DNA of 64,000 bases. It comes from a virus. Both the position numbers and the translations under genes were made by a program. Where the stretch lies: IMG/VR virus record IMGVR_UViG_3300045988_166360, positions 3,753 through 67,752 of that record, one strand, 5' to 3'. Under the pieces are notes generated by a model. The model was not told the origin of the DNA. It made no database searches and was given only the letters and a program-made list of their open reading frames with translations. Shown here piece after piece: positions 6,381 through 64,000 of the stretch (its first letter is position 1; each line of letters opens with the position of its first letter).

Positions 6381-6942
6381 CTTCTACACGTTGTTGCAAA
6401 ACTTCCTTGCTGATATAGGAGTATTCAGAAAGCTTCAACACTTTCTGGCTTACGACACTGGCCAGGACTGTAAAATACCTGAAGGTATTAAAGGGTTCCT
6501 TGGATTCCTTGGATTCCTTGGATTCCTTGGAATGATAGGAGACAAGCATATGAACAGCCATAACAAGAACAATAGCACGGACTATCGTATTTGTATCTGT
6601 GTACATGGCACACGCTTTTCCTTCATTCTCAATTTCCTGAGTGAACATGACATAATCCCGGAGTTGAGTGACATATTCCACCGCCTTTTCCAGCATAAAT
6701 TTAATCCCTTGAACCGGGGGAGGCACGACTCCGGGGAACAGGGAAGCGGCATGTTCCCCAATCGCCACGGCTTTTTCAGCCACCTCTTCCGCAGAAGCAT
6801 TTTTAGCCAAGCCGAAATCAGGGATGGATTCCCAAGCCAGTTCCAGTTCTGCCTTAAGCTTAATGAATTCCGGCTCTTTCATCTCCTGGGCCACCGCCTC
6901 TGTAACAGCGTCAAGGACAATTTCTTTTTTAATATCAGTCAT
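6352..6942 (-). CDS. Hypothetical protein with SKESKESKE repeat (196 aa)
   Basis: ORF; internal 9-bp tandem array (6494-6532) encodes SKE x4. Confidence 0.45.
   Translation of the reverse strand: MTDIKKEIVLDAVTEAVAQEMKEPEFIKLKAELELAWESIPDFGLAKNASAEEVAEKAVAIGEHAASLFPGVVPPPVQGIKFMLEKAVEYVTQLRDYVMFTQEIENEGKACAMYTDTNTIVRAIVLVMAVHMLVSYHSKESKESKESKEPFNTFRYFTVLASVVSQKVLKLSEYSYISKEVLQQRVEDAKSKIILN
6494..6532. repeat. 9-bp tandem repeat ggattcctt x4
   Basis: Read directly; in-frame within minus-strand ORF. Confidence 0.8.
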
Positions 6943-6947
6943 ACTTC

Positions 6948-7421
6948 TTAATCAATAAAATTCGGAACGACAAATACAGCGTCATGTGAGGCTCCTTTGT
7001 GAACCTCTGCCTCCTTCACTGTAATTTTCATCTGGTTTTCAACCAGAGAAAGGAGGACTAAAGAATCCCGGCTGAAAATCTGTTCTTCACCCGTTTCAAT
7101 GTTCTTGCAAACAAACCCAGGTTTCCTGCCATTGGAGAACCTAACCACCACATAATCCCTGCATCTAGATGTTTGATGAGCATACAGAAGGTATCGAACT
7201 ACATCTCCTACTTCCAAATAGCGTAACGGAAGGTAAAGCATCCGGGTGAGGTCATATGGCTGAGCCATAATTAAAGAAGAAACCGGATTTGTTAAGGGCT
7301 TAACCAGATAGTTATGGTCTTTTTTCAAAAGGATTCCGGGATTTATTCCCTTGTAAAGAACAAGGTCTCCAACTTCCAGAGGGTTTATCTGGTCTATAAG
7401 TAATCTAAGATTTATACTCAT
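6948..7421 (-). CDS. Hypothetical protein with two KOW/SH3-like 'VGDxVxY' beta-motifs (157 aa)
   Basis: EVGDLVLYKG and EVGDVVRYLL internal repeat; motif resembles KGDxVRY of paralog family at 45230-46477. Confidence 0.45.
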   Translation of the reverse strand: MSINLRLLIDQINPLEVGDLVLYKGINPGILLKKDHNYLVKPLTNPVSSLIMAQPYDLTRMLYLPLRYLEVGDVVRYLLYAHQTSRCRDYVVVRFSNGRKPGFVCKNIETGEEQIFSRDSLVLLSLVENQMKITVKEAEVHKGASHDAVFVVPNFID

Positions 7422-7585
7422 TTTCTTTTATATTTACGGTTAAGTATTATATACTGTAGGAAAGCATCCCCTATGATATAGAATATCATCCCACACCAAC
7501 AAAGGAGCAATACTGTACCAATGAAGAATAAAATGTCAATCATGAAAACATTATAATTGAACAGGGAAGAGTAGGGGGCTTCCAG

Positions 7586-8155
7586 CTAGGCACGGAGGTT
7601 ATCCTGTAGGGAACCACCCAGAGCAAGGCTTTCTATTTCTTCTTCCGTCACGTCATTTAGCCTGATAGCCAAAGCTTCTTCGGCAAAATCCACAAGCACT
7701 ACCCCCTCCGGTTCCAGAAAGGCCGGGCGATATTTAACTTCCTGGGTCAAAGCGGGACGCGCCTTAAAGAGAGCGGCATAAAGGCTTGTGGAGTATCTGA
7801 CCGCATTGATTCCCGGACGGCGGGGAGTATAATACAGAGTGGCGTATTTATGTTCCTTCCCGCGCTTTACAACGGGGGTTTCCAGCCGCATCACCATGAC
7901 GCTTCTGTTCTTGTGGTCATTATGATAAATCACAGGCAATGTGATTTTGGATTTATCAAAAGAAGCCGGACCGAACCCGTAGCTTTCCAGCTCAAGGATA
8001 GCCGGAGTCCATGGGTTCCATGGGATAGTAAGTAGAGTTAGCGTATCTACTATAAACAGAGGGTCAGAGGGTATCTTTTCTCCATAAATATCAGGATTCT
8101 TCTTTACATAGTCAGTAAGAAGCCATAGTTGTTGTGCCAGTGCGATAGATTTCAT
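7586..8155 (-). CDS. Hypothetical protein (189 aa)
   Basis: ORF in early block; no motif recognised. Confidence 0.45.
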   Translation of the reverse strand: MKSIALAQQLWLLTDYVKKNPDIYGEKIPSDPLFIVDTLTLLTIPWNPWTPAILELESYGFGPASFDKSKITLPVIYHNDHKNRSVMVMRLETPVVKRGKEHKYATLYYTPRRPGINAVRYSTSLYAALFKARPALTQEVKYRPAFLEPEGVVLVDFAEEALAIRLNDVTEEEIESLALGGSLQDNLRA

Positions 8156-8192
8156 TCTAGTGTCAGGGGTTAAAGTTATATAAAGATTCTAA

Positions 8193-8540: not shown

Positions 8541-8562
8541 AGCGTAATGTAAGGCTCTACGT

Positions 8563-9171: not shown

Positions 9172-9223
9172 GCGTTATATAGGTATTTAAATAATGCTTT
9201 AGTTTAGAATAAGTATCGTTATA

Positions 9224-11406: not shown

Positions 11407-11432
11407 ATATATATATTATAATTAGTTTATAT

Positions 11433-12097: not shown

Positions 12098-12676
12098 TTA
12101 TACTGAAACAACTTCACAACCTATAATTACCACTCGGCAAAAGTCCTGACAGTCTCCCTTAATTTCACGGATTGTAGAAAGAAGATGAATAAAATCGTCC
12201 GGTTTCTTGAACTTGACAAGTTGAGGGAAAAGAGTAGTACCCAGATTTACCGCTCCAAAGTTGGATTGAAGATGTGCCCTAATACAACGCCGAAGCTCTT
12301 TATTCTTAATTGAACCTGTCATGACAATGGCATTTTTTCCCACATAGGAAGCCGACAAGTCTTCAAAAGAAGGGGAAACTCCTGCAAAGGCCCGCCGTGC
12401 AATGTTGCTCATGTTTTCCCATAAAGGGCGGCGACAATATACTAATCTGGTTCCCCGTCTTGAAGCTATTTCATTCCACCATTTACGGGAATTTATAATA
12501 TCTAGAGGCATTTCCCAGTTTTCAACCTCCTGCAAATTATTGAGCCGGAAAGAAATAGATTCCATGGATACCGGGGCGGCAAATTTAACGTTGCCCTGCT
12601 GGTCAACTACAATCATATAAAATTGCCCCGTTTTAGATTCATAAACAAGAGCGTGTAATTTGTCAATCATATTCAT
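12098..12676 (-). CDS. Hypothetical protein (192 aa)
   Basis: ORF; possible Rossmann-like segment (GKNAIVMTGS) but no confident family. Confidence 0.45.
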   Translation of the reverse strand: MNMIDKLHALVYESKTGQFYMIVVDQQGNVKFAAPVSMESISFRLNNLQEVENWEMPLDIINSRKWWNEIASRRGTRLVYCRRPLWENMSNIARRAFAGVSPSFEDLSASYVGKNAIVMTGSIKNKELRRCIRAHLQSNFGAVNLGTTLFPQLVKFKKPDDFIHLLSTIREIKGDCQDFCRVVIIGCEVVSV

Positions 12677-16199: not shown

Positions 16200-16390
16200 T
16201 TTTAATGATTTCTATTGTTTTATTTCCCCCGGATTCCGGGGAACAGGGTCATCATATCAGGGGCGGGGGCCTTGTCAACCCACGGTTTCCGCGGTATCCG
16301 TTGATTCCGCGGTATCCGTTGATTCTTAGGTAGTTGTGATTGTGTCATACAAGATTTTCCGGGTTCCGTGGGCACAGGGGATTCCGTGGC

Positions 16391-16444
16391 TTCCGGGGGT
16401 TCCGGGGGTTCCGGGGGTTCCGGGGGTTCCGGGGGTTCCGGGGG
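16391..16444. repeat. 9-bp tandem repeat ttccggggg x6 (non-coding)
   Basis: Read directly; adjacent to copy of GC-rich mini-element (16357-16399). Confidence 0.85.
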
Positions 16445-16529
16445 TCAACTTTTATACACCATACCTATACCCCTATGGGTATAAGAGTACAATATATAGG
16501 GCCCCCCCCCCTCAAACTGGTCAAATATT

Positions 16530-16629
16530 TGACTATTTCGAAATCGAAACAATTAAGAAAGGGTAACTGTTTCCTTTCTTAAATAGTTAAAGAACATTGA
16601 CTATTTCGAAATCGAAACAATTAAGAAAT
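16530..16629. repeat. Two copies of 32-bp element ttgactatttcgaaatcgaaacaattaagaaa (16530-16561, 16598-16629)
   Basis: Exact direct repeat separated by 36 bp; contains TTCGAA palindromes; candidate protein-binding sites. Confidence 0.8.
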
Positions 16630-17051
16630 CTTAACTAATCGGCTCAATTTTGCATTATATGTATTATGCGAAGTATGGAAGGGAAAAGCTTTAAGAATCA
16701 ACAGGTTACGCTAAACAGGGTGCCAATAGGAAACAAACTGGGAAAAGGGGCGGCTGAATGTTAGAGCACCCGCGGAACCCACTGTTCCCCATACACTTAG
16801 GAAGAAACGGGCACCAAGAAATCAACGGAATCAGGGAATCAAAAGGACATTATGGAGACCGTCCGGGTTAGAGTTACTCGAACCTGACTTCTGGGAAAAT
16901 CTGGAACTTTTTGAAAAATTTTTCAACCAAAAAAGACCAAATACCACCACGGTTTCCAGGGCTCCGGGGAAGCAAAGTGGCCATTGTAAAAGATTAACTC
17001 AAATTTTTTCGGGGAAGACACGGGGCTAAATACCCCTTCTGGGCACAGAGG

Positions 17052-17646
17052 CTGTCAAGAAAAATCGACACGCGGCGGGCTCGGGAGACAAACAGAGGTG
17101 AGGACTAAACAGTGAAGATAACGTAGGTGTTCTTAAACAACCTGCGGACTAAAAACAGTCATGAAAGTATACAAAGTTCTAATCAGTTCTACCTGGTTCT
17201 ACTGGGTTCTAATGCAACGAACCCCTGCTGAAACCCAAAGGGTTAAGAGGATTCAGGGTTAGAGTTACTCGAAGGTTCAGAAATAAAATCAAGTTACCGT
17301 CACAGTGACGATAAACTCCCTTCTGACTGACGACAACGTTTACAAACAGGAGGTCTGTCAAGAAAAATCGACACGCGGCCTGGCTTCATTTTCATCCACT
17401 TCATGCTTGACAGAAGAGAAATTTCTGCTATAAAAGCCTTCGGTTCTCGAAGAGGTCTGCCGGGGCTCACTCCCCCAACTGTAGACCCGCCCTTTACTCA
17501 GGTAGCCGCAACAGACAATGACGAGTAAAACTGTTGGCCGGGCAGACCTGGTGTCGGGTTCGAGAACCAAACTTCCATTGGATACCCCGGAGGTCGCGGC
17601 AACGGCTTCCGGGGTTTTTTGTTGTCAAGAAAAATCGACACGCGGC
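17052..17646. repeat. Three copies of 25-bp element (c/t)TGTCAAGAAAAATCGACACGCGGC at 17052-17076, 17355-17379, 17622-17646
   Basis: Exact 24/25 matches, spaced 303 and 267 bp; second family gggttagagttactcgaa at 16865-16882 and 17256-17273. Confidence 0.85.
17585..17620 (+). terminator. Intrinsic terminator CCCCGGAGG..CTTCCGGGG + TTTTTT
   Basis: 9-bp stem (one G-U), 12-nt loop, U6 tail; in non-coding region, implies a plus-strand transcript ending here. Confidence 0.55.
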
Positions 17647-18351
17647 AGAAACAAAAATCCGGGAGAGATTCCCGTAATGGCAAACCTCTCCCGGACAGAG
17701 TGACGAATAGTGAATAGTGAAGCGAATAGAAAGGAGGTGCTCATGCAAAGAATCTTAACCAGAGCGGTTTCTGAATCCACGTCGCGTAGTGGCTTCAACA
17801 GGGGTTTTGCACAGGCAACGGCACCACCTTATCAGTCATTGAGTTTGTTGTCAAGGATATTGATTCCCGACCTGAGTTCTATAAAGAATCCCTTTTCCCG
17901 CAATGTTACCCTACCGTAACCGCGTTAATTGGGAAAAACGGGTTCGTGGTTCTGGGAGAAAAAACCACGCCGTTTTAATTAGGAGTAACTCTGTGAAAAT
18001 AAAATTTAGGAATTTACAATGTTACCCAACCTTTCCACGCCTTTCCTATTTCGTCTCCTTAGTTTGTCCGTCTCCCATCTTCAAAGCGGTTTTAGATAGG
18101 GGTAACATTGCAAGAACAGGAACAAATGGAAACATACACAATACAGAAATCATCACATAAAGGAGAAACCCAAACAGAAAGTTGACAAGAGAAGGCAAGG
18201 AGGAACCCAAAAAACTTGACTCAGAAAAAAGGTCATGATAACATCACTCAGGTTCTGTTCCTTAAAAGAGTATCAGACGAAAAAGGTTAAAATGTGTTCT
18301 GAGTCTTGTCAGGACAGGCCCATAATCGCGTTCATGGTTTCTGATTAGAGT

Positions 18352-18393
18352 CTGAGGGAGTCTATCCGAAAGGGTGAGGCTCCCTCAGTTTTT
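18352..18393 (+). terminator. Intrinsic terminator CTGAGGGAG..CTCCCTCAG + TTTTT
   Basis: Perfect 9-bp stem, 19-nt loop, U5 tail; in non-coding region. Confidence 0.55.
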
Positions 18394-18860
18394 GTAGTTA
18401 AAGAGGAAGCACATACACCAAACTCAAGCCCTAGCCCGAGAAGGCCCTTCCCTCATTGAAGCTAAACCAGTTATGCAATTTGTAGTTGAAAAAATAGTTT
18501 TGAAATAGTAGGCAAAAATTACGTCTAAACTACGCGTAAGTGACTGATTATTAAATGCGGGCCTTTATTTGTAGTAAATAGTAGTAGAGAAAAAAATTGT
18601 ATATATATATAATTTATAATATATAAAAAAAAAAAAAATAAAAAAAATATATTTACTGTATTACTATTTACTATTTAAAAAAAAAAGACAGTTAACCTGT
18701 TGAAAATCAACCTGTTATGAATAGTTTTACCAAAAACTATTTTTGAACCCCCGGAGTCCAAGGAACCCCCGGAATCCACTCTCCGACATCATGTAACATG
18801 TTCGAGATTAGTGGCTTACAAAAATAGTTGTGACCTCCTTTCTGCTTCAACTACAAAACG
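18390..18860. other. Candidate replication origin core: TTTGTAGTT(G/A)AA repeats (18390, 18479, 18567 direct; 18846 inverted) flanking ~100-bp AT-rich tract (18565-18690)
   Basis: Repeats and >85% AT tract read directly; located at strand-switch immediately upstream of primase-helicase module. Confidence 0.4.
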
Positions 18861-19021
18861 TAATTTCTTCTATTTCAATGACTTCTCATCCACACACAGC
18901 TCTCATCTACCCGGGTGTAGTCCAGCAAAGAGCTGTCCTCACCCTCTGAATGTCAGTTTCAGATACAAACCTGACACTTTTCGCTTGACTTCCTCCACTT
19001 CGTCTGCTAAGGTCTCCTTCC

Positions 19022-19705
19022 ATGACCGAAACATCTAATCTGGACCTGAGCCACTACCGACAATACCTGCATATAGACCCCCAATACCTTTGGGACGAAA
19101 AAGAGCAATGCTTTCAGACCCGCAGTATGAGAGCCCAGGAATCCACGGATTCCGTTGTGGCCTGCATTCTGAAAGTCTTTTGTGAATCCCCTCTCTATGT
19201 ATCTCTCGAAAGACTGCATCGGCTCTTCTGTCTGATAAAAGGAAGAGAAGCGGACCCCACGGAATCCGCGGCCCTCAAGGAGCTTTTTCTTATTGCTTTT
19301 TATCCTGTAAGTGCTGAGCTTCGTCTCCCGACTTATTGCAGTTTTCAATACGTGTGGAGCAAGGGCGGGTATGCAATGGCACATTATAGCGAACATCTCC
19401 GTTGGGAATTTAATAATGAATATGGCATCTACACCGACAAAGTTCTTCCTGTCAATAAGGTTCCTTTGTGCAATCTACTGGACATCAAACAGAAACGGTG
19501 CTATCCCATGCTTCTGGCCATCATCCATGAGCTGAACGGCAAATCCCTTGCCATACCCGAACTGCTCAGGAATCCTTATTTGTCGAAGTTCAGCAGGAAT
19601 ACCGTACTGAAACATGCCGAAGATGTATCAGCCCGGTATGGGCTTAAAACATCGTCAGGCCGCCCTGCGGTTTTGAATTCCGACTGCAAAATTTTCTATT
19701 ACTGA
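19022..19705 (+). CDS. Hypothetical protein (227 aa), first gene of plus-strand replication module
   Basis: ORF with ATG start; no motif recognised. Confidence 0.45.
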   Translation: MTETSNLDLSHYRQYLHIDPQYLWDEKEQCFQTRSMRAQESTDSVVACILKVFCESPLYVSLERLHRLFCLIKGREADPTESAALKELFLIAFYPVSAELRLPTYCSFQYVWSKGGYAMAHYSEHLRWEFNNEYGIYTDKVLPVNKVPLCNLLDIKQKRCYPMLLAIIHELNGKSLAIPELLRNPYLSKFSRNTVLKHAEDVSARYGLKTSSGRPAVLNSDCKIFYY

Positions 19706-47954: not shown

Positions 47955-48303
47955 GAGTATCTTCACTACCCAAAGAACGCTTCATCCGCGGATGGGGGCA
48001 CAGGAAAGGCTGTTAGGGATTTTAACAAACCTGGAACTGTTCGGTGTTGATTTTTCTTTGTCTTCTCTCAGGATTCTTTTGGCCCTTCACGGAAGCGGGG
48101 GTACCGCGAAACTAACGGCAAAACAGTTATCCCTTCAGCTAAGCCTGTCCACCTCGAACATTTCTTATCACCTCAACAAGCTTCTGGATTATGGCCATGT
48201 GGAGAAGGTAACGGACAGCGACCCCCAGCAATACCAGCTCACGGCACGGGGGAGGAACCTCTGCCGTGACATCTTCAAACCCCAAGAATACATCAACAAA
48301 TGA
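47947..48303 (+). CDS. Winged-helix (MarR/ArsR-like) transcriptional regulator
   Basis: LTAKQLSLQLSLSTSNISYHLNKLLDYGHVEKV recognition-helix/wing pattern. Confidence 0.5.
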   Translation: MTKSIFTTQRTLHPRMGAQERLLGILTNLELFGVDFSLSSLRILLALHGSGGTAKLTAKQLSLQLSLSTSNISYHLNKLLDYGHVEKVTDSDPQQYQLTARGRNLCRDIFKPQEYINK

Positions 48304-49734: not shown

Positions 49735-50472
49735 ATGGTTAGGGTTTATTTATTTACTTATGCAAAAGATGCAAACCCTGCGTTAGCCTGCGTTCGCTGT
49801 CTTCGAAATACGTTGCCTGAAGCTTGGATTACTGTTGTAGATGATGCTTCTGCTCCTTGTTCTTCCGATTTTATAAGACAATGTTTTCAGTTGGGGGTTT
49901 TTTCTTACATGCAAAGCACCTTTCCTCGAAATGGAAACTTGAAAGGGGATAGATGTATTAAAGGCATTCTGTCCACGTTGGTTCAAAATTCAAACGAAGA
50001 TGACGTTATCATAAAGATTGACTCTGATACTTTGTTACTGTCTCCTGCTCCTATAGAACGAATGCGGAACTTGGAGGCAGATGGCTTCGGAGCCAGTTCT
50101 TTATTCCGTCCTTTCGCGGGATTATGCTATGGCTTTACACAAAAAGCATTAAAACTTTTACATGAAAAAACATATCTATTACCGTCTTCCTCTACGATAG
50201 AAGAAGATTTATGGATTGGAAAATTGATTTTTTTACAAAAGTTAAATATGGCTATAGACAGGCCATGGACTCCCGTACATACTCAAGGACGGTGGACTGC
50301 CTATAACTGGCCATATTCTCCTGTCTTAGAACTATATCGCTCTTTGGACGTAGTAACGTTTGGAACTTTTGAAGGAATCCCCTCTGTAGATAAAAACCAT
50401 GTGGCAAACAAAATGAACGCTTTAATAGACTTGGTATATGGACCTGGCAATAATACCTGCAAAGCATCATAG
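49735..50472 (+). CDS. GT-A fold (family 2-like) glycosyltransferase
   Basis: VVDDASAP and IKIDSDTLL (DxD) motifs at spacing typical of GT2; low-GC island. Confidence 0.45.
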   Translation: MVRVYLFTYAKDANPALACVRCLRNTLPEAWITVVDDASAPCSSDFIRQCFQLGVFSYMQSTFPRNGNLKGDRCIKGILSTLVQNSNEDDVIIKIDSDTLLLSPAPIERMRNLEADGFGASSLFRPFAGLCYGFTQKALKLLHEKTYLLPSSSTIEEDLWIGKLIFLQKLNMAIDRPWTPVHTQGRWTAYNWPYSPVLELYRSLDVVTFGTFEGIPSVDKNHVANKMNALIDLVYGPGNNTCKAS

Positions 50473-51043
50473 TTCAGAAGTCCCTTATAAAAACTTTCGG
50501 GCTCTATGGAGGGAGCCTCTTTTTTTACATTCCGTGAGGTATGCAGTAAAAGAAGGTGTACCCTGTGTAGTTTCTACGGACAGCGAAATTATTAAAGGTT
50601 TATGTCGTCGAAATAATATCCCTTACCTCCATGAAGAAGTAGATGATTCTAATATCCTGAATTGTGTAACTCAAGTAGTTAAAAAAGAAAAAGTGGATAG
50701 GTGGATTCTTTTACAACCTACAAGCCCGATACGCCCCCCCTCTCTGCTTAAGAAGTTATTGAGTAAGAATAATGAAAATATTATGACGGTTCAAAAAATA
50801 TATCTCCATGGTAAACTGGGAAGCCGTTTTATACATAAAACTCGAAGGCAGGAATCCTCTGAAATCTTATATCAATTCAACGGAAGTATTTTAATAGGGA
50901 GTTATGACATGGTAATGAAGGAACAGACCCTATTCAAAAACCCTTTAATGGTAGAACAGAGGGGACTATATAACTATCAAATAGACTATCTTGAAGATTT
51001 TGAACACCTGGAAAGGTATGGAAATTTGCATTGTGGGGAATAA
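50438..51043 (+). CDS. CMP-nonulosonate/CMP-Kdo-type cytidylyltransferase (NeuA/KdsB family)
   Basis: AIIPAKHHSSEVPYKNF matches AIIPARxxSKxxPxKN; LLQPTSPIR matches LLQPTSPLR of acylneuraminate cytidylyltransferases. Confidence 0.6.
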   Translation: MDLAIIPAKHHSSEVPYKNFRALWREPLFLHSVRYAVKEGVPCVVSTDSEIIKGLCRRNNIPYLHEEVDDSNILNCVTQVVKKEKVDRWILLQPTSPIRPPSLLKKLLSKNNENIMTVQKIYLHGKLGSRFIHKTRRQESSEILYQFNGSILIGSYDMVMKEQTLFKNPLMVEQRGLYNYQIDYLEDFEHLERYGNLHCGE

Positions 51044-51613: not shown

Positions 51614-52336
51614 ATGGCCAGTAATAATAACCCCATGTCCGAAACACAACCTAACCATGAGTTTGATGATTTTGTTTTCATCATTTTTGCGTACAACTCT
51701 ACCCTGGACTGGCCGGAGCGTGAGCCTCTGCTTGTTCACTATTCTGTCAATTATCTGCTCAACCACGGAATCCCCGGAACCCGTATTACCGTTCTGGCCA
51801 ATGACCTGTCGGTATGTTCCTGGGCAAACCAGCAGGGAATGAAGTTTATCCAGCTTAAAGCCACAAACCGTAAAACGATTACGGAAGCTATATCCTCCAT
51901 AATGGGGGAGAATCCGTGGAAGAATATCATATGTCTCAACACCGTATTTCCTGTGCGTGAAGCGGACCTCCTGTCTTTGATGTGCAGTCAAATCAGGACG
52001 GAAAAACAACGGCTCTTTCTCACTGCTCACATGGGAGCCCACCACCAGAAGGAAGATAACACAGTAACTTGGGATACTGTATTGAACGGAAGTATCTTGG
52101 GCTTTCGTCACGACTCTGATATTAAATCCATCTTCCATCCCGATACATTGTATCCTGTGCATCACAATGCTGAATGCGGGAATTATAACATCTGCTACAG
52201 ATACCAGTATATGAAGGAACCCCTGGAATCCGCGGTTGCCGTGGGTTACAAAATGTCCGCATGGACTGCGCCCTGCCCATCAGAATATCCCCGCAGGGTG
52301 GAAATAAAGCTGGACAAGGACACAGCTACCCACTAA
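51614..52336 (+). CDS. Second nucleotidyltransferase-like protein (240 aa)
   Basis: NIICLNTVFPVREADLL resembles ILLQPTSPIRPPSLL of the upstream cytidylyltransferase; contains partial mini-element 51765-51785. Confidence 0.4.
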   Translation: MASNNNPMSETQPNHEFDDFVFIIFAYNSTLDWPEREPLLVHYSVNYLLNHGIPGTRITVLANDLSVCSWANQQGMKFIQLKATNRKTITEAISSIMGENPWKNIICLNTVFPVREADLLSLMCSQIRTEKQRLFLTAHMGAHHQKEDNTVTWDTVLNGSILGFRHDSDIKSIFHPDTLYPVHHNAECGNYNICYRYQYMKEPLESAVAVGYKMSAWTAPCPSEYPRRVEIKLDKDTATH

Positions 52337-52346: not shown

Positions 52347-52802
52347 ATGAACAACTCCAACTTATATTTTGATGGGACTCTGGGAAGGTTCATCAGGAAA
52401 GAAATCTATGACCAGGTTAGCGTAGACAGCAACCTGATTGCCCTGCAGGGTCTGGCCTGCGGAGAATTGACCGTAGGGGCAGGATTCAATAATCGCCTGA
52501 AGCTGTACATTTCCCATGCCTCCGGCCTGGATTTAAGCACGTCCCAAAGTGTTTCCTTTGATATGGTGACAAAGGTGGCTCCTTATAACCAGGGCAACTT
52601 GCCCATATATACGGTAGTCGATACGACTGGCGCGTACATATCTAAACCCGCAGGGACTTCCGACGTATGCCTTTTCTCTACAAACATTATTGAGTTTGAC
52701 CCGGAGAAATATCCAAGAGGCACCTATTGGATGGAAATTTCTCTCAACTGTACAGGGAGAGTATGGTGCAACACTTTTCCCATTCTTTTTCACATCATTT
52801 AA
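52347..52802 (+). CDS. Hypothetical protein (151 aa)
   Basis: ORF only. Confidence 0.4.
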   Translation: MNNSNLYFDGTLGRFIRKEIYDQVSVDSNLIALQGLACGELTVGAGFNNRLKLYISHASGLDLSTSQSVSFDMVTKVAPYNQGNLPIYTVVDTTGAYISKPAGTSDVCLFSTNIIEFDPEKYPRGTYWMEISLNCTGRVWCNTFPILFHII

Positions 52803-52807
52803 CCAAC

Positions 52808-53188
52808 ATGAAATTAGACCTCAACAGAATACTGAAACTTTATCCGCTCCTTAAAATCCTCCACTACCAGACAAAGGAAGGCTTTCATCATGAAAAATAT
52901 GATGAAGCATTCGATGACCTGGGGGAACTTGCGGACAAATTTATTGAAACCTACATGGGGCTGAATGGACGGGACTGGATTGCAGGTTCCCTCCCCATGC
53001 CCAAACTTGTAGAACCCAACACCCGGAACTGCGTTGCAAGATACCGCATGGACATCATTGACGACCTTATCCCCTATCTCTACCAGATGGCTCGAGGACA
53101 TAAGGCCCTGAACAAATTGGCAGAAGATTTTGACGAAGCCGCCCACGGAATCCTTGGTCTCCTGGAAAACTTCAGCAATGGCCAATAA
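52808..53188 (+). CDS. Hypothetical protein (126 aa; internal ATG of track ORF 52727..53188)
   Basis: ATG 6 nt after previous stop. Confidence 0.35.
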   Translation: MKLDLNRILKLYPLLKILHYQTKEGFHHEKYDEAFDDLGELADKFIETYMGLNGRDWIAGSLPMPKLVEPNTRNCVARYRMDIIDDLIPYLYQMARGHKALNKLAEDFDEAAHGILGLLENFSNGQ

Positions 53189-53193: not shown

Positions 53194-53685
53194 ATGCCCT
53201 GTGTGTATAATAAAGCAGAGTTTTACATGGCCAATGACGGCCCGGAAAGCAACTCTGAAATCATATCCCAGGTTCTGCCACGCATGGACGGGATACTTTC
53301 CCGAGCCCGCTCCATGACTTGGGGCATGATTAGCTATTCCCTGTCCAGGACAAATAATCCTTTCGGCATTGCGCTCGAACATATGCGGGTAGGCTTCGCC
53401 GCACGAACCGTATCCCTGCCGGATGTTACGGGTGTGTGTGATGTGTCCCATTGGATAATTATGGAAACGGTCCCCCTTTCTTTCGAGGACTTCCGTTGTA
53501 TTTTCAGGATTCTGGAACCCACGGTATCCCCGGATGAACTGCACGATTATCTCCTGCATAATCAATGGTACACTCCTTCCAAAGAAATCCAACTGGACAA
53601 CGACATGATTACCCTGTTCCACTGGGAACTGGGCTACCCTGAAAACGAACGAATCAACCCACTGAAAAATGACACAGAACAATAA
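53194..53685 (+). CDS. Hypothetical protein (163 aa)
   Basis: ORF only. Confidence 0.4.
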   Translation: MPCVYNKAEFYMANDGPESNSEIISQVLPRMDGILSRARSMTWGMISYSLSRTNNPFGIALEHMRVGFAARTVSLPDVTGVCDVSHWIIMETVPLSFEDFRCIFRILEPTVSPDELHDYLLHNQWYTPSKEIQLDNDMITLFHWELGYPENERINPLKNDTEQ

Positions 53686-54409
53686 AATCAAAAAGATTCA
53701 ACAGCTGGTAGGCGTAACTGCTGACGGCATTATAGGCCCTAAAACCATTGACGCAATTCTTAAGCGGTTGACTTCGGATTCCATGGGTACCGGGGAATCC
53801 GTGGATGCTTATGAAATCCGTAACCGGATGGCCGCTAAAATCCTGAACATGGAAGACTATAAAATTACGGGGCCAGAATCCCTGCGGGTTACGCGCCTCC
53901 CCTCCGGTGATGGAGGCGGCACCCGGGAAATCGCAGGTATCTGCGACGGGATTGAACCGGAAGTGTTTAACCGGATTAAATCTCTGCTGGACAAGGGACT
54001 GCGGGAAGAAGCATGGGAGGACTGCCTCAGCTATGTACTTGAGAATACGGCCACCATTGCAAGCTATTTTCCGAATTATGGTTTTGGCTACGAATTCATG
54101 GTGCGCGACCTGGCCTTTAACATGGGCAATGCCGGAGCTATCAAAGTTATCCAGGGCATGGCCAACCGTGAGGGCACTGACGAGATTGCAGTGGATGGGA
54201 AGTGGGGCATTAAAACGCAGACAGCTTTGCTGGGGCTGACCTCAACCCTGCCCGAAGACTACGTGGTTAATGCTCTGGACAAAGCGGCCCGAACCCGTTA
54301 CCAAAGTATTGTGGATGCCAATCCCGTCAAGGAAAAATTCCTCAAGGGGTGGCTCAACAGATGCGACGACCGCCTGGCTTTTGCTAATACTCTTGTGTCA
54401 AGCAAATAA
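53669..54409 (+). CDS. Putative endolysin / peptidoglycan-binding protein
   Basis: Two PG-binding-like repeats (VTADGIIGPKTIDAI; VDGKWGIKTQTALL); catalytic domain not identified. Confidence 0.4.
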   Translation: MTQNNKIKKIQQLVGVTADGIIGPKTIDAILKRLTSDSMGTGESVDAYEIRNRMAAKILNMEDYKITGPESLRVTRLPSGDGGGTREIAGICDGIEPEVFNRIKSLLDKGLREEAWEDCLSYVLENTATIASYFPNYGFGYEFMVRDLAFNMGNAGAIKVIQGMANREGTDEIAVDGKWGIKTQTALLGLTSTLPEDYVVNALDKAARTRYQSIVDANPVKEKFLKGWLNRCDDRLAFANTLVSSK

Positions 54410-58167: not shown

Positions 58168-58905
58168 ATGGCGTTCATTACTAAATCCTATTTGACGTAT
58201 CGAAATGTATGCGACGAATTGTGTATGCTCATTACCAATACGCCGCCCTCCAAAACCAATGTTGACTTCCGCAGGATTCTAAAAGAAGCCCAGAACCTCC
58301 TGCTTAACGAAGCCACGGTATCCCCGGATTCCATGGCAACTCTTGACTTCGAAGGGATTGAACGGGACGGAACCATATCCTTGCCGGAAGAATATGACAG
58401 TATCGTTGAGGCATGGACTCCGGGGGGCCAGAGGTACAACATTGTTGACCGGGCCATGTTCGAATCCAACACCTGGTTCCGTAGCGAGTACCCCCGCAGG
58501 CCGCACGGTTCCCCTCCCCTCATGGTGGACATGGGGCTAAATGACAAAAACCTCCGCACCTATGCCGTACTGTCTGGTAGCAATGGCATTAACGACCAGA
58601 ACAACACCATGACCGTGACCGCGCGTTGCGCCCTCCGCGGGCTGTCCCTGAATGTTTATGACGACAGCGCATGGGAAGATGAAGAGGTCCGCATTTATCC
58701 GGGATGTCTTCCCGCCCTCAAGGCCATGATGCTGTCCGTAGTCTACAATGAACAGGGCAATACCCAGATGGGCACGGACAGTTACGGACTGGCAGTCAAA
58801 TACCTGAACGACCATCTTCGCAAATACCGTCAGGGCACCTATCAGGCACCCAACATTATTCAAGTGGGTGGCCTGATGCAGAGCCCCGGACTTAATCTCA
58901 TGTAA
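58168..58905 (+). CDS. Hypothetical virion-module protein (245 aa)
   Basis: ORF only. Confidence 0.45.
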   Translation: MAFITKSYLTYRNVCDELCMLITNTPPSKTNVDFRRILKEAQNLLLNEATVSPDSMATLDFEGIERDGTISLPEEYDSIVEAWTPGGQRYNIVDRAMFESNTWFRSEYPRRPHGSPPLMVDMGLNDKNLRTYAVLSGSNGINDQNNTMTVTARCALRGLSLNVYDDSAWEDEEVRIYPGCLPALKAMMLSVVYNEQGNTQMGTDSYGLAVKYLNDHLRKYRQGTYQAPNIIQVGGLMQSPGLNLM

Positions 58906-58910: not shown

Positions 58911-59996
58911 ATGGCAACTCAATCTACAGCTACAAGTAATGAAGGGAAGAACCCCGTAACCAAGTCTCCGCGGCAGAAGATTACTGAAGAAGTTCTGCCC
59001 AAGGTAAACCCCGACGTGCCGCTTCGCCCCAGCTCCAACAACGACCCGAACAAACCTGTCGATGCTAAGGCATTGAACGAAGTGGCCGCGGCCAACAGCA
59101 ACCACGGAATCCAGAGACCTCCGGGAACCCCGGAAAGGCCCAGCGCGGCCTACTGGGCCAGCAAGGGAATCACGGAACCCACGGTTCCAGGTGCCGCGGA
59201 CCCGAACAGCAGAGCCTATGCGGAAGCCCAGCGGGCCAGTTACCAAAAACTCATAGCCCAGGGGCCGACCGCAGAGGACAGGCTTCTCATGAGGGGCGTG
59301 GACCAGAATGTAAGCAGAGGGCAGATGCCTGTAATCAGAGGACCTGAACCCGCCGTACCCACGGGACCCACGGTACCCACGGGACCCGGGGGTCGAACTT
59401 CCGCGTCTTCGAATCTGACCTTCGGGGACTTCAGTGCGAAAATGAAGAATGACCTCCCCCCGGAACAGTATAAACTTTTCCAGTCCCTGTCTCCCGCTGT
59501 ACAAACAAACCTATACAACAGGTTTAAAGCGCAACAGATTAGACAGATGGGAACCACGGGAACCACGGGAACCACGGGAACCACGGGAACCACGGGAACC
59601 ACGGGAACCGTGGGGGCCTTGCCTGCCGGGGGTTCTCCCATACCTACGGCAGAAACAACCCCGCTGGGACGGGATGAAAAAATGCTGAATGTTCTGCGGG
59701 ACTCTACAGCAGACCCGCAAGCCAGGGCTCAAGCCAAAGCCTATCTGACGGTCAAGACCATGTATGCCCAGAAAGGAAAATACGCAAACGAAATTAAAGC
59801 CCTGGAACGAGGTGCCCGCGCTTACCGTAAACAACTGGACAATATGTTCAAAAATACTTTGAACCGAAGGGACCCGCGGTACCAACAACAGTATGACCAC
59901 CTAAGATTGCTGAGGAAGAACAACCCGCAGGCGAAACTTATCATGTACACGGAACTGTTGAAGAGGCCGGAGTTTGCTTCTCTTAGATTCAAATAA
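58911..59996 (+). CDS. Low-complexity Pro/Gly/Thr-rich protein with (GTT)x6 repeat (361 aa)
   Basis: Disordered composition; arrays 59352-59386 and 59549-59611 in frame; mini-element copy 59101-59135. Confidence 0.45.
   Translation: MATQSTATSNEGKNPVTKSPRQKITEEVLPKVNPDVPLRPSSNNDPNKPVDAKALNEVAAANSNHGIQRPPGTPERPSAAYWASKGITEPTVPGAADPNSRAYAEAQRASYQKLIAQGPTAEDRLLMRGVDQNVSRGQMPVIRGPEPAVPTGPTVPTGPGGRTSASSNLTFGDFSAKMKNDLPPEQYKLFQSLSPAVQTNLYNRFKAQQIRQMGTTGTTGTTGTTGTTGTTGTVGALPAGGSPIPTAETTPLGRDEKMLNVLRDSTADPQARAQAKAYLTVKTMYAQKGKYANEIKALERGARAYRKQLDNMFKNTLNRRDPRYQQQYDHLRLLRKNNPQAKLIMYTELLKRPEFASLRFK
59549..59611. repeat. 9-bp tandem repeat gggaaccac x6-7 (encodes GTTGTT...)
   Basis: Read directly; CCACGG core. 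Confidence 0.85.
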
Positions 59997-60035: not shown

Positions 60036-60075
60036 GCCCCCGCTTTGATAGACTTAGGCAGTCCCCAAAGCGGGG
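60036..60075 (+). other. Hairpin CCCCCGCTTTG..CAAAGCGGGGG (11-bp perfect stem, 18-nt loop), no U-tail
   Basis: Read directly between genes. Confidence 0.3.
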
Positions 60076-60107
60076 GCGCATTATATTAGCAACCAAACAT
60101 TTAAGCA

Positions 60108-63100
60108 GATGGCCATTGATTTTACTAAAGCCAGCCTGACGGATTGGGACCTGGATTCCGAACGTGCAGAACGACGGGAGGCCCGCGCCGCAGAAAAGCA
60201 TGCCGCATGGCAACAGACACAGGAACAGAAAGCCCTGGACCGCCAGGCGAGAGAAGCTGAAAAAACCAGAAAGCGGGAAATTGAAGCAGTTGATGCCGAC
60301 GTGGACTTCGCTACCTACTTGTCTGACACTCTGGAAAAGCAGAGGAAGGAGTTGGAAAAGCAAGCTAAGGAAGCAAAGACAGCGAAAAGAACAGAGGTAA
60401 CGGAAGCACGGGAAGACCAGAGGTTTGACTGGGCCCTTCAGGATAGGCGTAAAAAGGAAATTAACGAAGCCGTAGCATCTCTGGGCAAGCGCAATATAGG
60501 CTTGTATGCGGAAACCCTTGATGACCTGGCAGAGTATGTGAACCAGGACGAAAACAGTTTTATCGACCTGAAACAAGCCAGTAAAGGCGACTCTTCCCTT
60601 CTCGAAAAACTCAACGATTCTCTGGATGCCACTGTAGTATCTTCCAATTCCCTGACCCCTACTGACCCTGCATTCGTTTCCAGGTATGGTATCAGTGTAG
60701 GGGAAAACGGACTGCCCGTTATCACTGAAAAATTTTTAGCCATTGCGGCAGACCGCACCCGTAATTCAGGGGAGGTAAGCAAAGCGATTGCAAACACGTT
60801 AGCGGCTAACAGGAAAAAATATATTAAGGAACACCTGGATGCCACTGGACTCAACGCCGCACAGGTAGAAGCGGAAGCCCCGGCAACCATGGAAGCCGAA
60901 GAAATTAAGGCCCTTCTTGATAATATCCGGCGTAAAAATATTGACACCTTCAAAGCCGCCAGGAAAGTTTACGACAAATACAACACGGCATCCACGGAAG
61001 CCATTCAGGGCAGGAAGCCCAGTGAGGCCAGCGTGGGGGAGCCTGGCGTTGGCGAATCCTTTGACACGGCACCTTCATTCACTGGGAATGTTTTTGCTGA
61101 GCTCGCCAACCTGTCCAAGTCTCCCAGCACTATGTTCCGTCTCGTCCGTGACTACGGTAAATACGTAGCCGACACGGCATCCACGGTAGCCAAGGAAGCC
61201 ACGGATGCCCGTGCCGCTGAAGCCGGGAAGCGAGCCATCACTGCCGCGAAGACAGTGGACAACATTATTCAGCGGATGGAGGACGAGTATGAGGGCATCA
61301 ACTCCGTAGCCCTCCGGGAAAATTTGATGGACGAAGCCAAGGTTGCCGAAGCCGCCGTGAAACGGTTGGCTCCCATGGTTGACCTTGACGAGATGCGGGC
61401 CGTGGCTGACAAGAAGAGCCATGAACTGGGCCGCACCATTGAATCGGATTACCGCCGTGACTATGCTGACACGCTGTATGCCGAACTGGAAAAGCGCAAT
61501 CCAGGATTAAGCCGTGACCTGATTCGCACACTGGGAACTACGGAACTCCTGAATGCCCAGACCAACGGCCTGAAGAAACGCGGCAGTCTTGATGACGCGG
61601 TTGCCGGGGCCATGAGCCAATACAGGAGCACGGCTGGTCAGGTCGCTGACGTTCTTACCTTCCAACCGGGGAATCTGGCAGGGAAAACCAGTGACCCGCT
61701 GAGTACAATGGAATGGCGGCAAGGTGCGCGTGGTTGGGAGTATGGTATAGTGGGCGGTCCTACCTTTGAGGTCAGCACCGAACAGCTTCGTGATTACATG
61801 AAGAACTACGGGATTAAGAACACGAAGGACGCGCTCAATTCCCTTAGTCATGCGGCAAGACAGGGGGACCTCAACATAGGCAGAGGTACGCTGTTTGCAT
61901 ACAACCCCCACACGAGAGAGGTTGATACAAACGCCACGCTCCAATACAATCCCAATGCCCTGTATGATGACGACCTATTCAATCGTAGCGTCAACCAGTT
62001 GCAGGAATCAGGAGCAGACCCAGAGCTGATTGAGAAAACGATTGAGCAGTGGAAGAAGACTCGCACCAAATCCGCAAGCGAAATGGTCAAGCAGAACATG
62101 GAACTGGAAGAAACTCTAGGGGCTCTTCGAGATACCTGGATGGGAACTGGTGCCGGATTTGCTGGTGGCTGGGTCATGGACCGTCTGGATAAGATGCTGT
62201 CCTTCAAAGAGTTCTATAACAGTGGCAAGGAGAATGGCCAGAGTGATGAGCAGATTCTTGCCGCATGGCAGAAGGAAGGACAGGGTACTATCAACTCCAT
62301 TCTCCGGGGCCTTCAAATCGGCACACACAAATTTGCTGATATCGGGACGGGAGCTGTTGCGGGGTCCCTTCTTTTCGCCTCCAACCTTTTGGGCAGTGAC
62401 ACTGGCCGGGAAAAAGCCCGCACCATGTGGAACACGCTGAATGAAAAACAGAGGGCAGAAGGTGAACTGGTCAAGGGAAATCTCATGGCTGACATGTCTG
62501 CGGAGATTGTCAACCTGGGATACCAAATGGTAGGTACCTATGTGGGAGGTGCGGTTGGTGGTATTGCCGGGCGAGCCCTGGAACGCACAGCAATGAATGG
62601 TCTTATCAAAGCAAGTGCCAAGGTAATAGCCCGTAGAACCGAAGCCCTCGTACCTGCCGCACGTCCGGGACTAGCGAGCAGTGTAAGCGGAGGCATCCAA
62701 CGGGTTATGAACCGGGCCGCCAATATAAACCTACAGCGTGCGGGTGCGGGTGCCGGGGTTAATACTGTCATTGCCAGTCAGGTAGTGCCCCAAGCATACT
62801 CCGAAATTTTTTACGCGGTCTATGACCGGGAGATGGAAGGTAAGGAACCCACCGCAGAGAACCTCGAAGCGGCTCAAGCCAAAGCCAACCTCAGAGCTTT
62901 AATGGGTTCAGGGATTGCGGGCGGCATGTCCATTCTGATTAACAACCGCGCAGGTATGGAGTCCTTCATGCGTAAAGTAGTGGGAGCCAAAAACCTCCGC
63001 AGGGAAAACTGGTTCAACCGTGTAGATGAACGTCTTTCCAATTGGCGAAGAAAAAACTGGAAAGACATGACCAACATAGAACGCACTAAAGCGGTAGCTT

Positions 63101-64000
63101 CTTACCTTTACAGTTGCGCCAAGGTTTCCGCTGAAGGGGCCACTGAAGAATTGGCTGACGAATTCCAGGAATGGGCTGTGACTGAACTGGCCAAGAATGG
63201 GGAAATATCTGAACAGTCTATCGGAACTTTCGAAGGAGTCGTTGAAACAGGGGCCAAGATTGCTTTCCTTGGTATGCTTGGTGGGGTGTATGGAGCACGA
63301 ATCGCAGGAGAAACCCCCGCTCCCTTCCAGCTTTCTCCCACGGCACCCACGGCACCCACGGCACCCACGGCAACCATGGTATTTAAAGAAGCCAGCCAGC
63401 TGGTAGAGAGTACAGGCAAAGCCCTGGAATCCGTGGACCCCACGGGACCCGCGGCACCCCTGCTCGAATCGGGCCGGAAGACTATTGAAGTAGCGGGGGA
63501 CAGGGGGGACGTGGAGCTGGTGGCCGCGGACTGGGTGAACAAGACCGTAGCCAATGAGGAACTCCATCTGTCGGATGAACAAAAGGCACAATGGATTTCC
63601 ATGGCACCCGCATTAGGCATGACCAACTTCCAATCTTTCCGCAACTATGTGCAGGAAGCCTCCGACAGATACCAGTACGAAGGGGAAACCGCCGCGGCTG
63701 AGTACCTTGCGGATGTTATTCGTGACCTGCCCAACACGATGGCCTATGCAAGCGATACCAATGTGGGCATCATGCGCTCCATGCTGACCGAAGCATTCGA
63801 CGCAATGAAGAGCCGCGAAGCGAACATCCCTCTGGATGACAACCTTGACCTTCAGGGTACTGGGGACGAAAGCCTGGACGAAGCTTCCAATATCATCAAC
63901 ACCCTGACGAACGAAGAAACGGATACCACGGATACCACGGATACCACGGATACCACGGATACCACGGATACCACGGATACCACGGATACCACGGATACCA
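60108..64000 (+). CDS. Very large virion protein, tape-measure/ejection-protein-like (3' end outside window)
   Basis: Frame open for >1290 codons from ATG 60108 to window end; coiled-coil N-region, Gly/Ala-rich hydrophobic segments (GAVAGSLLFASNLL, VGGAVGGIAG), arrays PTAPTAPTAPTA (63329-63364) and TDTTDT... (63924-64000+). Confidence 0.5.
63924..64000. repeat. 9-bp tandem repeat acggatacc x8.5, continues past window
   Basis: Read directly; CCACGG core; in-frame (TDT repeats). Confidence 0.85.

Follow-up and report, generated by a model that had tools for sequence, protein, structure and literature searches.

Introduction

Tandem arrays of short operator or iteron units, such as the 8-bp metboxes of MetJ, the 7-bp heptads of the omega repressor, the ParR/parC iterons, the octamers at the ori and crr of the P4 alpha protein and the ori iterons of Staphylococcus aureus pathogenicity islands (SaPI), are bound cooperatively by small dimeric proteins. 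Uptake signal sequences and DNA uptake sequences (USS/DUS) and Chi are short, asymmetric, fully specified and non-tandem motifs of host genomes that are tied to uptake or to RecBCD. In cyanobacteria, the highly iterated palindrome HIP1 (GCGATCGC) is 15-300-fold over-represented, mostly within genes and in all frames (PMC5861425; PMC4390886), and Cluster A mycobacteriophages carry dozens of stoperators genome-wide, also outside promoters, that are bound by a phage-encoded regulator (PMC9283540; PMC6550527). Here we analysed a 64,000-nucleotide stretch of viral DNA (positions 3,753 to 67,752 of IMG/VR record IMGVR_UViG_3300045988_166360; called the window, in whose numbering all positions are given), which is most of the ~72-kb genome of a phage from an uncultured human-gut lineage and carries 42 short arrays of 9-bp units, each consisting of CCNNGG and a three-nucleotide spacer.

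These arrays share with operator and iteron arrays the head-to-tail units of 7-11 bp that are often palindromic, a copy number of 2 to ~10 that varies among relatives, and a position at promoters or origins, here predicted ones, beside an A/T-rich tract. However, operator and iteron arrays occupy one or a few non-coding loci per replicon, whereas the window has ~40 arrays scattered over its coding sequence, leaves the inner NN free and has only a candidate binder. Like HIP1, whose function was long unknown, the arrays are lineage-specific and are retained beyond codon usage. HIP1, in contrast, is an isolated, fully specified 8-mer of cellular genomes with orphan methyltransferases, and the window holds half-degenerate, phased 9-bp phage arrays and no recognisable methyltransferase. 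The resemblance to stoperators lies in the many copies of one site across a phage genome, with binding known for stoperators and proposed here. Stoperators are asymmetric single sites of 13-14 bp, oriented with transcription and mostly located in the short gaps between genes, and their repressor binds as a monomer, whereas the units of the window are symmetric, tandem, phased at 9 bp, mostly intragenic and without a definable orientation.

In-frame variable number tandem repeats (VNTRs) and the repeats of collagen-like fibres are similar in their 9-bp period, in-frame slippage and location in virion proteins (compare the arrays at 59554, 63338 and 63926). VNTR units are arbitrary, and collagen repeats form long runs that never leave the Gly phase, unlike the 42 short arrays described here, which are built on one DNA-level unit and are mostly in a non-Gly phase. 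Copy-number differences by whole units, as in VNTRs, were found among the arrays; an arbitrary unit and uniform degeneration were not. Finally, the arrays resemble USS/DUS and Chi as dense short motifs in coding DNA, in frames encoding tolerated peptides, but no host counterpart was found among the scan matches listed.

Results

The motif excess reflects degenerate arrays with a 9-bp period

The initial annotation of the window had reported a massive over-representation of the 11-mer CCNNGGAWTCC and, separately, seven tandem arrays of 9-bp units. When both strands of the window were counted, we found 48 matches to the 11-mer, far above the mean of 1.87 and the maximum of 8 seen in 100 dinucleotide-preserving shuffles. 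The reported excess therefore holds, and chance or base composition as its cause was ruled out by these shuffles. The feature itself is broader than had been stated. CCNNGG occurred 416 times in the window (306 expected), with 80 pairs at a lag of 9 bp against 1.4 expected and 38 triples spaced by 9 bp against none. Lags of 18, 27 and 36 echoed this signal, and every other lag held 0-7 pairs. In a comparison of all 256 classes of the form XYNNZW, CCNNGG alone showed a signal at lag 9, the runners-up being shifted readings of the same arrays. Masking of the perfect tandem arrays still left 50 CCNNGG pairs at this lag.

The underlying feature is a degenerate head-to-tail array, (CCNNGG+NNN)n, with a 9-bp period and a spacer consensus of A-W-T. 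Chaining of 9-bp units that retained at least 3 of the 4 specified CC/GG bases yielded a total of 42 arrays of 2-9 units each, spanning positions 5885-63994 (Table 1). The 11-mers and the tandem arrays, previously treated as separate, are thus one phenomenon, and lone matches to the 11-mer, for example at 25744 and 55774, fall within even more degenerate arrays. The 19 positions listed earlier for the 11-mer correspond to real matches within ~5 bp, with three exceptions: the match placed at 52250 lies at 52221, while those at 47524 and 53520 belong to arrays but fall outside the strict AWT class (spacers AAG and TAT, respectively).

All seven of the tandem arrays were recovered by Tandem Repeats Finder (TRF) with a period of 9. 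Their units, which had been described as variants of CCACGG, are really CCNNGG plus 3 nucleotides; neither CCTTGGATT, the unit of the array at 6496, nor CCGGGGGTT, that of the array at 16361, fits the narrower description. CCACGG/CCGTGG is merely the commonest inner pair: grouped into symmetric classes, the inner pairs of 126 units included 59 AC/GT, 29 CC/GG, 12 AT, 9 AA/TT and 8 GC. The motif was carried by 9 of the 14 period-9 arrays found by TRF, including every high-scoring one, where an arithmetic estimate for random units gives ~3-4%. The array phenomenon is real, strong and lineage-specific. To our knowledge it is apparently undescribed, and nothing relevant or comparable was found in the literature on CCNNGG or 9-bp repeats in phages.

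Table 1. CCNNGG arrays and other features, in window coordinates. Phase on the sense strand: 1, xCC-NNG-GNN; 2, xxC-CNN-GGN (Gly phase); 0, CCN-NGG.
Feature	Coordinates	Units or sequence	Context	Phase	TRF period-9 coordinates
Array	5885-5908	3 units (2 perfect)	minus-strand ORF 5814-6380, Zn-ribbon protein	1	
Array	6014-6046	4 units (2 perfect)	minus-strand ORF 5814-6380	1	
Array	6498-6530	perfect tandem (CCTTGGATT)x4	minus-strand ORF 6352-6942; SKE repeats	1	6496-6531
Array	8009-8023	2 units	ORF 7586-8155 (-)	0	
Array	12562-12576	2 units	ORF 12098-12676 (-)	1	
Array	16227-16241	15-bp perfect palindrome CCCCGGATTCCGGGG	non-coding		
Array	16280-16330	6 units (3 perfect), 18-bp super-repeat	non-coding		
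Array	16366-16443	9 units (8 perfect), incl. (CCGGGGGTT)x6	non-coding		16361-16445
Array	16947-16961	2 units	non-coding		
Array	18749-18772	3 perfect units	non-coding		
Array	19134-19157	3 units	ORF 19022-19705	1	
Array	19257-19280	3 units	ORF 19022-19705	1	
Array	20548-20580	4 units	VapE-like primase-helicase 19712-22576, indel-prone segment	2	
Array	23881-23913	4 units	DNA polymerase A 23555-25459	2	
Array	26732-26746	2 units	helicase 25456-26820	1	
Array	27417-27467	6 units (5 perfect)	PDDEXK exonuclease, amino acids 204-221	1	27424-27466
Array	27918-27941	3 units	PDDEXK exonuclease, amino acids 371-379	1	
Array	29071-29094	3 units	RuvC-like resolvase ORF 29051-29566	2	
Array	29535-29549	2 units	RuvC-like resolvase ORF 29051-29566	1	
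Array	35876-35908	4 units (2 perfect)	ORF 34363-36642	1	
Array	36864-36914	6 perfect units, all differing in NN/NNN	ORF 36593-36955	1	
Array	38030-38044	2 units	ORF 36964-38172	1	
Array	40028-40042	2 units	ORF 40009-40539	1	
Array	41729-41770	5 units (2 perfect)	ORF 41602-43380, tail-tip/BppL-like	1	
Array	41858-41899	5 units (2 perfect)	ORF 41602-43380	1	
Array	42170-42184	2 units	ORF 41602-43380	1	
Array	47274-47288	2 units	intergenic, 187 nt upstream of ORF pair incl. winged-helix gene		
Array	47520-47534	2 units	ORF 47475-47954	0	
Array	48791-48805	2 units, identical in 7/7 relatives	ORF 48724-49677	1	
Array	51763-51777	2 units	ORF 51614-52336	2	
Array	52221-52244	3 perfect units	ORF 51614-52336	1	
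Array	53143-53166	3 units	ORF 52727-53188	2	
Array	53519-53533	2 units	ORF 53194-53685	1	
Array	53772-53804	4 units	peptidoglycan-binding protein 53669-54409	1	
Array	58313-58336	3 perfect units	ORF 58168-58905	1	
Array	59350-59391	5 units	ORF 58911-59996	1	59357-59387
Array	59554-59631	9 units incl. (CCACGGGAA)x6	ORF 58911-59996	1	59549-59609
Array	60878-60901	3 units	giant ORF 60109 to window end	1	
Array	61172-61213	5 units	giant ORF 60109 to window end	1	
Array	63338-63379	5 perfect units incl. (CCACGGCAC)x3	giant ORF	1	63337-63376
Array	63422-63463	5 units	giant ORF	1	
Array	63926-63994	perfect tandem (CCACGGATA)x8	giant ORF, TDT repeats; reaches window end	1	63919-64000
Array oligonucleotide, listed alongside (CCGGGGGTT)6		CCACGGAATCCGTGG			
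Sigma-70-like promoter match	16278 to 16251, minus strand	TTGACA-16-TATGAT, 11/12, extended TG	consensus match only		
MarR/ArsR-like winged-helix protein	47947-48303, plus strand	118 amino acids	Pfam MarR_2 34 bits (cut-off 27); also HTH_5/ArsR		
ThyX flavin-dependent thymidylate synthase	4289-4978		leftward block; without link to arrays		
Cytidylyltransferase-family protein	50438-51043		among late genes; without link to arrays		

The array signal is a constraint on nucleotides

Six of the 42 arrays are non-coding and 36 lie in open reading frames (ORFs) of unrelated function on both strands. They are not confined to fibre genes, and occur in DNA polymerase A (PolA), helicase, exonuclease, resolvase, early genes and non-coding DNA. 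The contexts named earlier (a minus-strand gene, non-coding DNA, the PDDEXK exonuclease, a 361-amino-acid protein and an ORF of >1297 amino acids) are correct; the labels 'tail-module' and 'giant virion protein' could not be confirmed, there being no Pfam hit. All three phases are represented among the coding arrays, in keeping with the several reading frames reported before, but 29 of the 36 share a single phase (xCC-NNG-GNN), with five in the Gly phase and two in CCN-NGG. The 227 distinct arrays at the subclade loci were divided, in the same order, into 145, 45 and 19, plus 18 non-coding.

We then permuted synonymous codons with the proteins and the codon counts of each gene held fixed, and also shuffled the order of codons. 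The fixed-protein null gave 6.3 ± 2.3 lag-9 pairs, 0.3 triples and 6.2 ± 2.0 arrays, while 68, 32 and 36, respectively, were observed. Codon bias and peptide repeats therefore fail to explain the arrays and were ruled out as their cause by the synonymous-codon and codon-order shuffles. Codon bias for Glu-Ser or Thr-Asp-Ser peptides, which the initial annotation had raised as a possible explanation, is insufficient. The encoded peptides are [S/T/P/A]-x-[E/D/G/A/V] linkers, with TDT, PTA, GTT and SKE repeats, and explain ~1/6 of the signal. The remainder is a constraint on nucleotides.

The spacers point to the nature of this constraint. Position 1 of 62 spacers was A in 30, C in 9, G in 9 and T in 14, and position 3 mirrored it with T in 29, G in 10, C in 14 and A in 9; the centre was W in 58. 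The unit consensus, CC-NN-GG-A-W-T, is strand-symmetric, and two units form the 15-bp pseudo-palindrome CCNNGG-AWT-CCNNGG. Mirror symmetry in genes of both orientations fits recognition of duplex DNA, and would not be predicted by peptide selection or by an mRNA signal. Neighbouring units were complementary in 5 cases (8.9 ± 2.5 expected), identical neighbours were mildly enriched (14 against 9.3 expected, P = 0.05), and the commonest neighbouring pair was AC-AC, a direct repeat. Since complementarity between neighbours is not enriched, hairpins are not the organising principle of the arrays.

Sequences of at least 16 nt were shared between arrays only at the level of the null, and those of 12-15 nt were only ~2-fold above it, indicating that the arrays arise locally and not by transposition. 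A near-identical 30-mer, CCCCGGAnnCCAAGGAACCCCCGGAwTCCA, was found once at 18749-18772 (non-coding) and once at 20548-20580 (primase-helicase gene). A copy-and-paste mobile element resembling Rickettsia palindromic elements (RPE) or miniature inverted-repeat transposable elements (MITE) was rejected, as there is no long common sequence and the PolA and exonuclease arrays are equal-length replacements, not insertions. Collagen-like Gly-X-Y genes were rejected too, the definition failing with only five of the 36 coding arrays in the Gly phase. A scan of IMG/VR for five phased units returned mostly genuine collagen-like fibre genes of unrelated phages, with 20-90 units in the Gly phase, and the five-unit pattern alone is therefore not diagnostic.

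Array length changes by slippage while CC and GG are retained

We compared the window with 38 loci of relatives, mostly from IMG/VR sample 3300045988, which are 81-87% identical in PolA and 80-97% identical in a 960-amino-acid protein. The lag-9 signal was present in all 38. The arrays are not invariant, as had been considered possible, and their lengths among relatives differ by multiples of 9 bp. The array at 53772 measures 57 or 66 bp, relatives with one extra unit having a different inner NN; that at 59350 measures 66 or 57 bp and marks the start of a divergent 1.2-kb segment; and that at 61172 measures 57 or 66 bp, being 9 bp shorter in five relatives. Lengths of 93, 102 and 129 bp were seen among close relatives for the array at 59554, and of 45, 48, 57 and 66 bp for the array at 63338. 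Changes in 9-bp steps demonstrate slippage. The slippage at a common seed suggested by the initial annotation is thus borne out as a process by copy-number polymorphism, but it is insufficient alone.

Three observations show this insufficiency. First, relatives at 81% identity have, in place of the PolA array at 23881, a sequence of equal length outside the 9-bp register, and the same was seen for the exonuclease arrays at 27417 and 27918. In an exonuclease alignment extending down to 38% identity, the two arrays fell in the two least conserved segments, with no change in length. This indicates that non-array sequence was converted by substitution, and not only by insertion. Second, CC/GG is intact even where every unit differs (36864-36914). 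Among relatives, too, the inner NN changes (ACG, GTG, GGG and GCG, for Thr, Val, Gly and Ala), with the residue of the middle codon varying between T, V, G, A, M and P, while CC and the third-position G persist together with GG.

Third, CC/GG columns are less variable than N columns. At codon positions 1, 2 and 3, column variability was 0.25, 0.24 and 0.46 for the N positions of arrays, 0.13, 0.14 and 0.29 for CC/GG, and 0.13, 0.08 and 0.37 for the flanks. With stratification by codon position, variation was half as frequent in CC/GG columns as in N columns (Mantel-Haenszel odds ratio 0.48, P = 0.007). The N positions were 2-3 times more variable than the flanks at codon positions 1 and 2. Slippage accounts neither for the constant seed CCNNGG nor for the retention of CC/GG within arrays whose NN and NNN vary.

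The 87% and the 81% subgroups have their arrays at different positions, indicating turnover. Syntenic relatives that lack arrays (GC content 0.48-0.52, exonuclease 38-44% identical) had 0-4 lag-9 pairs in loci of 13-22 kb, which is background, against 10-22 pairs in the same regions of the array-bearing subclade. As these relatives are syntenic and of the same GC content, the signal is lineage-specific. The primase-helicases of the array-bearing and array-lacking clades showed no domain difference and are colinear at 27% identity.

Other features of array-lacking relatives were noted. One of them, L290 (IMGVR_UViG_3300045988_169882), has 21 CCNNGG pairs at lag 18 and one at lag 9; a possible source of the lag-18 signal is a beta-solenoid/bactofilin-like repeat protein (L290:11948-12694, YdcK repeat). 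Another carries an IS605 OrfB/TnpB-like gene in its structural module (L161:16233-17078), and two have an HNH (NUMOD4) endonuclease between PolA and the helicase (L162:1588-2109 and L163:7863-8384).

Arrays flank a promoter-like site in a non-coding region

Between the divergent gene blocks lies a 2.8-kb stretch (16200-19020) that lacks an ORF even if any one stop codon is reassigned, and lacks a match in Rfam; in array-lacking genomes ~300 bp separate the blocks (L159:604-920). Read leftwards, the window shows six copies of CCCCCGGAA with degenerate units (16443-16366), a further array (16330-16280) directly upstream of the -35 of the promoter-like site, and then the palindrome CCCCGGAATCCGGGG (16241-16227), just downstream of that site; the first ATG (16199) follows after 28 nt. 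A ~90-bp A/T tract (18600-18690) lies next to the array at 18749-18772. The region also contains arrays in relatives, where they are built on other inner pairs (CCACGGTTT, CCGTGGGTT and CCCCGGTTC). The layout at 16227-16443 and 18749-18772 thus appears operator- or iteron-like, with a putative promoter and a possible origin predicted from the sequence.

The same region holds three copies of TGTCAAGAAAAATCGACACGCGGC (17053, 17356 and 17623), a 32-mer TTGACTATTTCGAAATCGAAACAATTAAGAAA present twice (at about 16529 and 16597), a C10 tract (16502-16511) and a strong terminator-like hairpin (17584-17615). The segment 17356-17646 is 90% conserved in the relative L001. The 2.8-kb region may hold small RNAs or an origin.

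A winged-helix protein is a candidate binder

Of the proteins in the window, the MarR/ArsR-like winged-helix protein alone is recognisable as a sequence-specific DNA binder. Its gene was present, at 60-100% identity, in every array-bearing relative covering the region. An AlphaFold model of the protein (mean predicted local distance difference test score, pLDDT, of 75, with >85 in the core) matched MarR, CzrA and related dimeric repressors with a template modelling (TM) score of ~0.6. In the predicted recognition helix, the stretch LSLSTSN shows no variation, against a divergence of 40% in the remainder of the protein. The gene overlaps the preceding ORF (47475-47954 and 47947-48303) in the late region, and the first of the two has a faint FaeA-like (regulatory winged-helix) match. 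Such a regulator pair amid structural genes is unusual.

Genome content and host

A scaffold in ENA (ERZ28573319 scaffold_198; 72,247 bp) is 99% identical to the window in the exonuclease, and a close relative is derived from a human gut metagenome. The minus strand carries the genes between 2.8 and 16.2 kb, and the plus strand those from 19 kb onwards. The recognisable ones encode ThyX, a VapE-like primase-helicase, PolA, a helicase, a PDDEXK exonuclease, a RuvC-like resolvase, the large terminase (TerL), peptidoglycan-binding and tail-tip-like proteins, a cytidylyltransferase and the winged-helix protein; the rest are unannotatable. The window has no tRNAs, and its ORFs include no recognisable transposase or reverse transcriptase.

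No cultured relative was found: megablast gave no match, the best PolA hit by tblastn was 27% identical and TerL had no match. An exact-protein look-up of the exonuclease and a scan for loci related to the early genes gave no match either. The idea that the motif is a host-derived signal is not supported: 185,579 bacterial species genomes contained no relative, and a scan of species genomes for the array pattern gave, among the matches listed, scattered hits that came mostly from high-GC taxa and amounted to one array per 8 kb; a mid-GC genome in which arrays are dispersed was not among these matches. The first leftward gene (ATG 16199) has no obvious Shine-Dalgarno sequence and an A-rich leader (AAATCATTAAAAATG), though the promoter-like site is of sigma-70 type, and the primase-helicase has a BT4734-like N-domain. 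Judged from the sequence, this leader and N-domain weakly hint at a Bacteroidota host.

Discussion

Our tentatively favoured interpretation is that a symmetric DNA-binding protein recognises the arrays as phased sites, which slippage remodels; a recognition sequence of this kind was among the readings that the initial annotation had put forward. A dimeric, sequence-specific protein of the phage lineage would read the CC/GG and the A/T-spacer positions and ignore the inner NN, and n units in an array would provide n-1 overlapping sites at which dimers could bind cooperatively. The densest cluster of arrays, which brackets the leftward promoter-like site and has an A/T tract nearby, would fit a role as an operator or as an iteron-like origin. 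The ~36 intragenic arrays would be secondary sites, surviving only where the peptide is unconstrained and mostly as xCC-NNG-GNN. Slippage can add or remove units and leave reading frames unbroken, since the unit length is a multiple of 3, and in fact does so.

Several points weigh against recognition by such a protein. The arrays are clustered and not evenly spaced, a 9-bp register puts successive sites on different faces of B-DNA, and the ~36 intragenic sites have no obvious regulatory logic. Arrays lie in the fastest-evolving protein segments and turn over rapidly between subgroups. Two comparisons were not significant: 20 of the 42 arrays lie at most 150 nt from a gene start against 14.8 expected (P = 0.06), and CC/GG at third codon positions varies little less than flanking third positions (0.29 against 0.37, P = 0.23). 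As for the winged-helix protein, the array-lacking clade has in the same slot a 107-amino-acid protein with a sub-threshold MarR_2 match and no BLASTP similarity, but which shares the helix skeleton xSNxxYxLxxL and differs in its residues. The slot is therefore older than the arrays. The presence of a MarR-like gene does not track them, only the helix residues differ, and a change in specificity is the most that could track them. We regard the winged-helix protein of the window as a candidate array binder that is a lead and not evidence, its choice being a guess from sequence and model.

As the main alternative, the arrays could be a by-product of mutation. Replication or repair in this lineage, through PolA, the primase-helicase, the exonuclease, the resolvase or a lost element, could have a property that makes CC/GG-bounded 9-bp units unusually prone to duplication and local template switching. 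The result would be neutral or slightly deleterious scars that grow, shrink and decay, and that persist only in non-coding DNA and where the peptide is unconstrained. We consider this possible, if on balance unlikely. It agrees with the 9-bp copy-number steps among close relatives, the seven perfect tandem arrays, the mild enrichment of identical neighbours, the position of arrays in the least conserved segments, the fast turnover of these positions between subgroups and the lineage specificity of the signal. It accounts poorly for the retention of CC/GG in degenerate arrays where every unit differs, the halved variability of CC/GG relative to N positions, the equal-length replacements in PolA and the exonuclease, and the high share of period-9 arrays that carry the motif. 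Moreover, we know of no slippage mechanism that picks CCNNGG while leaving NN and NNN free.

Recognition by a dimeric protein can also be cast as a genome-wide, in-frame 'iteron code' kept by selection, with several dozen phased units for one phage-encoded binder in genes and in the control region, which we judge distinctly doubtful. Such a code might serve to initiate or prime replication at many sites, to condense or partition the genome, or to control transcription globally. Linker sequences in the proteins would then be set by the DNA signal, with slippage adjusting the number of sites.

It is improbable that the arrays are recombination linkers or hotspots, in which short shared homologies would serve in-frame exchange of modules between co-infecting relatives through the RuvC-like resolvase and the PDDEXK exonuclease. 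E. coli RuvC prefers to cleave at (A/T)TT↓(G/C), and GGAWTCC contains a matching ATT↓C. The hotspot proposed in the initial annotation draws weak support from homology breakpoints among relatives at the arrays 47274, 59350 and 61172. At the last of these, in L032 and L035 (96-97% identical), a ~300-bp in-frame segment of the giant ORF exactly replaces the five-unit array 61172-61213, a case of domain gain or loss. The predominance of one phase in coding arrays would also suit in-frame exchange. However, only ~4 of ~20 breakpoint ends lie at arrays against ~1.5 expected, the hypervariability of arrays itself creates BLAST breakpoints, and most arrays are away from mosaic boundaries. The segment 59390-60618 has the same length in relatives and is therefore diverged, not swapped, and neither the non-coding arrays nor a strict 9-bp periodicity is required by this model.

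A motif for modification, or for defence and counter-defence, is very unlikely, whether through methylation or hypermodification at CCNNGG or GAWTC or through titration of a host nuclease. The motif is a short palindrome of the kind that methyltransferases recognise, the phage encodes ThyX, and the HIP1 palindrome, over-represented in genes, has been linked to orphan methyltransferases (PMC4390886; PMC5861425). The suggested DNA-modifying activity nevertheless has no recognisable counterpart in the gene content: none of the ORFs of the window, outside which lie ~8 kb of the 72-kb genome, was identified by Pfam or PHROGs as encoding a methyltransferase, a glycosyltransferase, a DpdA-like protein or another base-modifying enzyme. 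Nor do such motifs need a 9-bp register or a tandem arrangement, and a matching host signal was not found among the scan matches listed.

An origin at the protein level, with arrays encoding low-complexity or collagen-like linkers ([ST]-x-[ED], Gly-x-Pro) in preferred codons, is hardly tenable: one phase dominates, the peptides are linker-like, ~6 arrays are expected with proteins fixed and the five-unit pattern elsewhere in IMG/VR is mostly that of collagen-like tail-fibre genes, but the codon shuffle largely refutes it, six arrays are non-coding, all three phases occur with few in the Gly phase, and amino acids change while the third-position G and CC are retained. Equally remote are RNA or single-stranded DNA hairpins formed by adjacent complementary units as transcript stabilisers, terminators or N4-type hairpin promoters. 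Perfect palindromes such as 16227-16241 (CCCCGG-AUU-CCGGGG), just downstream of the promoter-like site, and one terminator-like array speak for hairpins; against them stand the lack of enrichment for complementary neighbours, the prevalence of the AC-AC direct repeat and a consensus that is strand-symmetric in genes of both orientations.

If the arrays are binding sites, the phage would be writing a dense, phased DNA signal through its genes, with DNA-level selection overriding the choice of amino acids, and this may represent a new form of genome-wide control of replication, packaging or transcription in an abundant clade of uncultured gut phages. If they are a mutational scar, they would reveal a sequence-specific process of 9-bp duplication tied to a particular phage replication or repair apparatus. 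Either way, array-bearing genomes and their syntenic, array-lacking counterparts provide a tractable comparative system, and the motif is simple to test directly.

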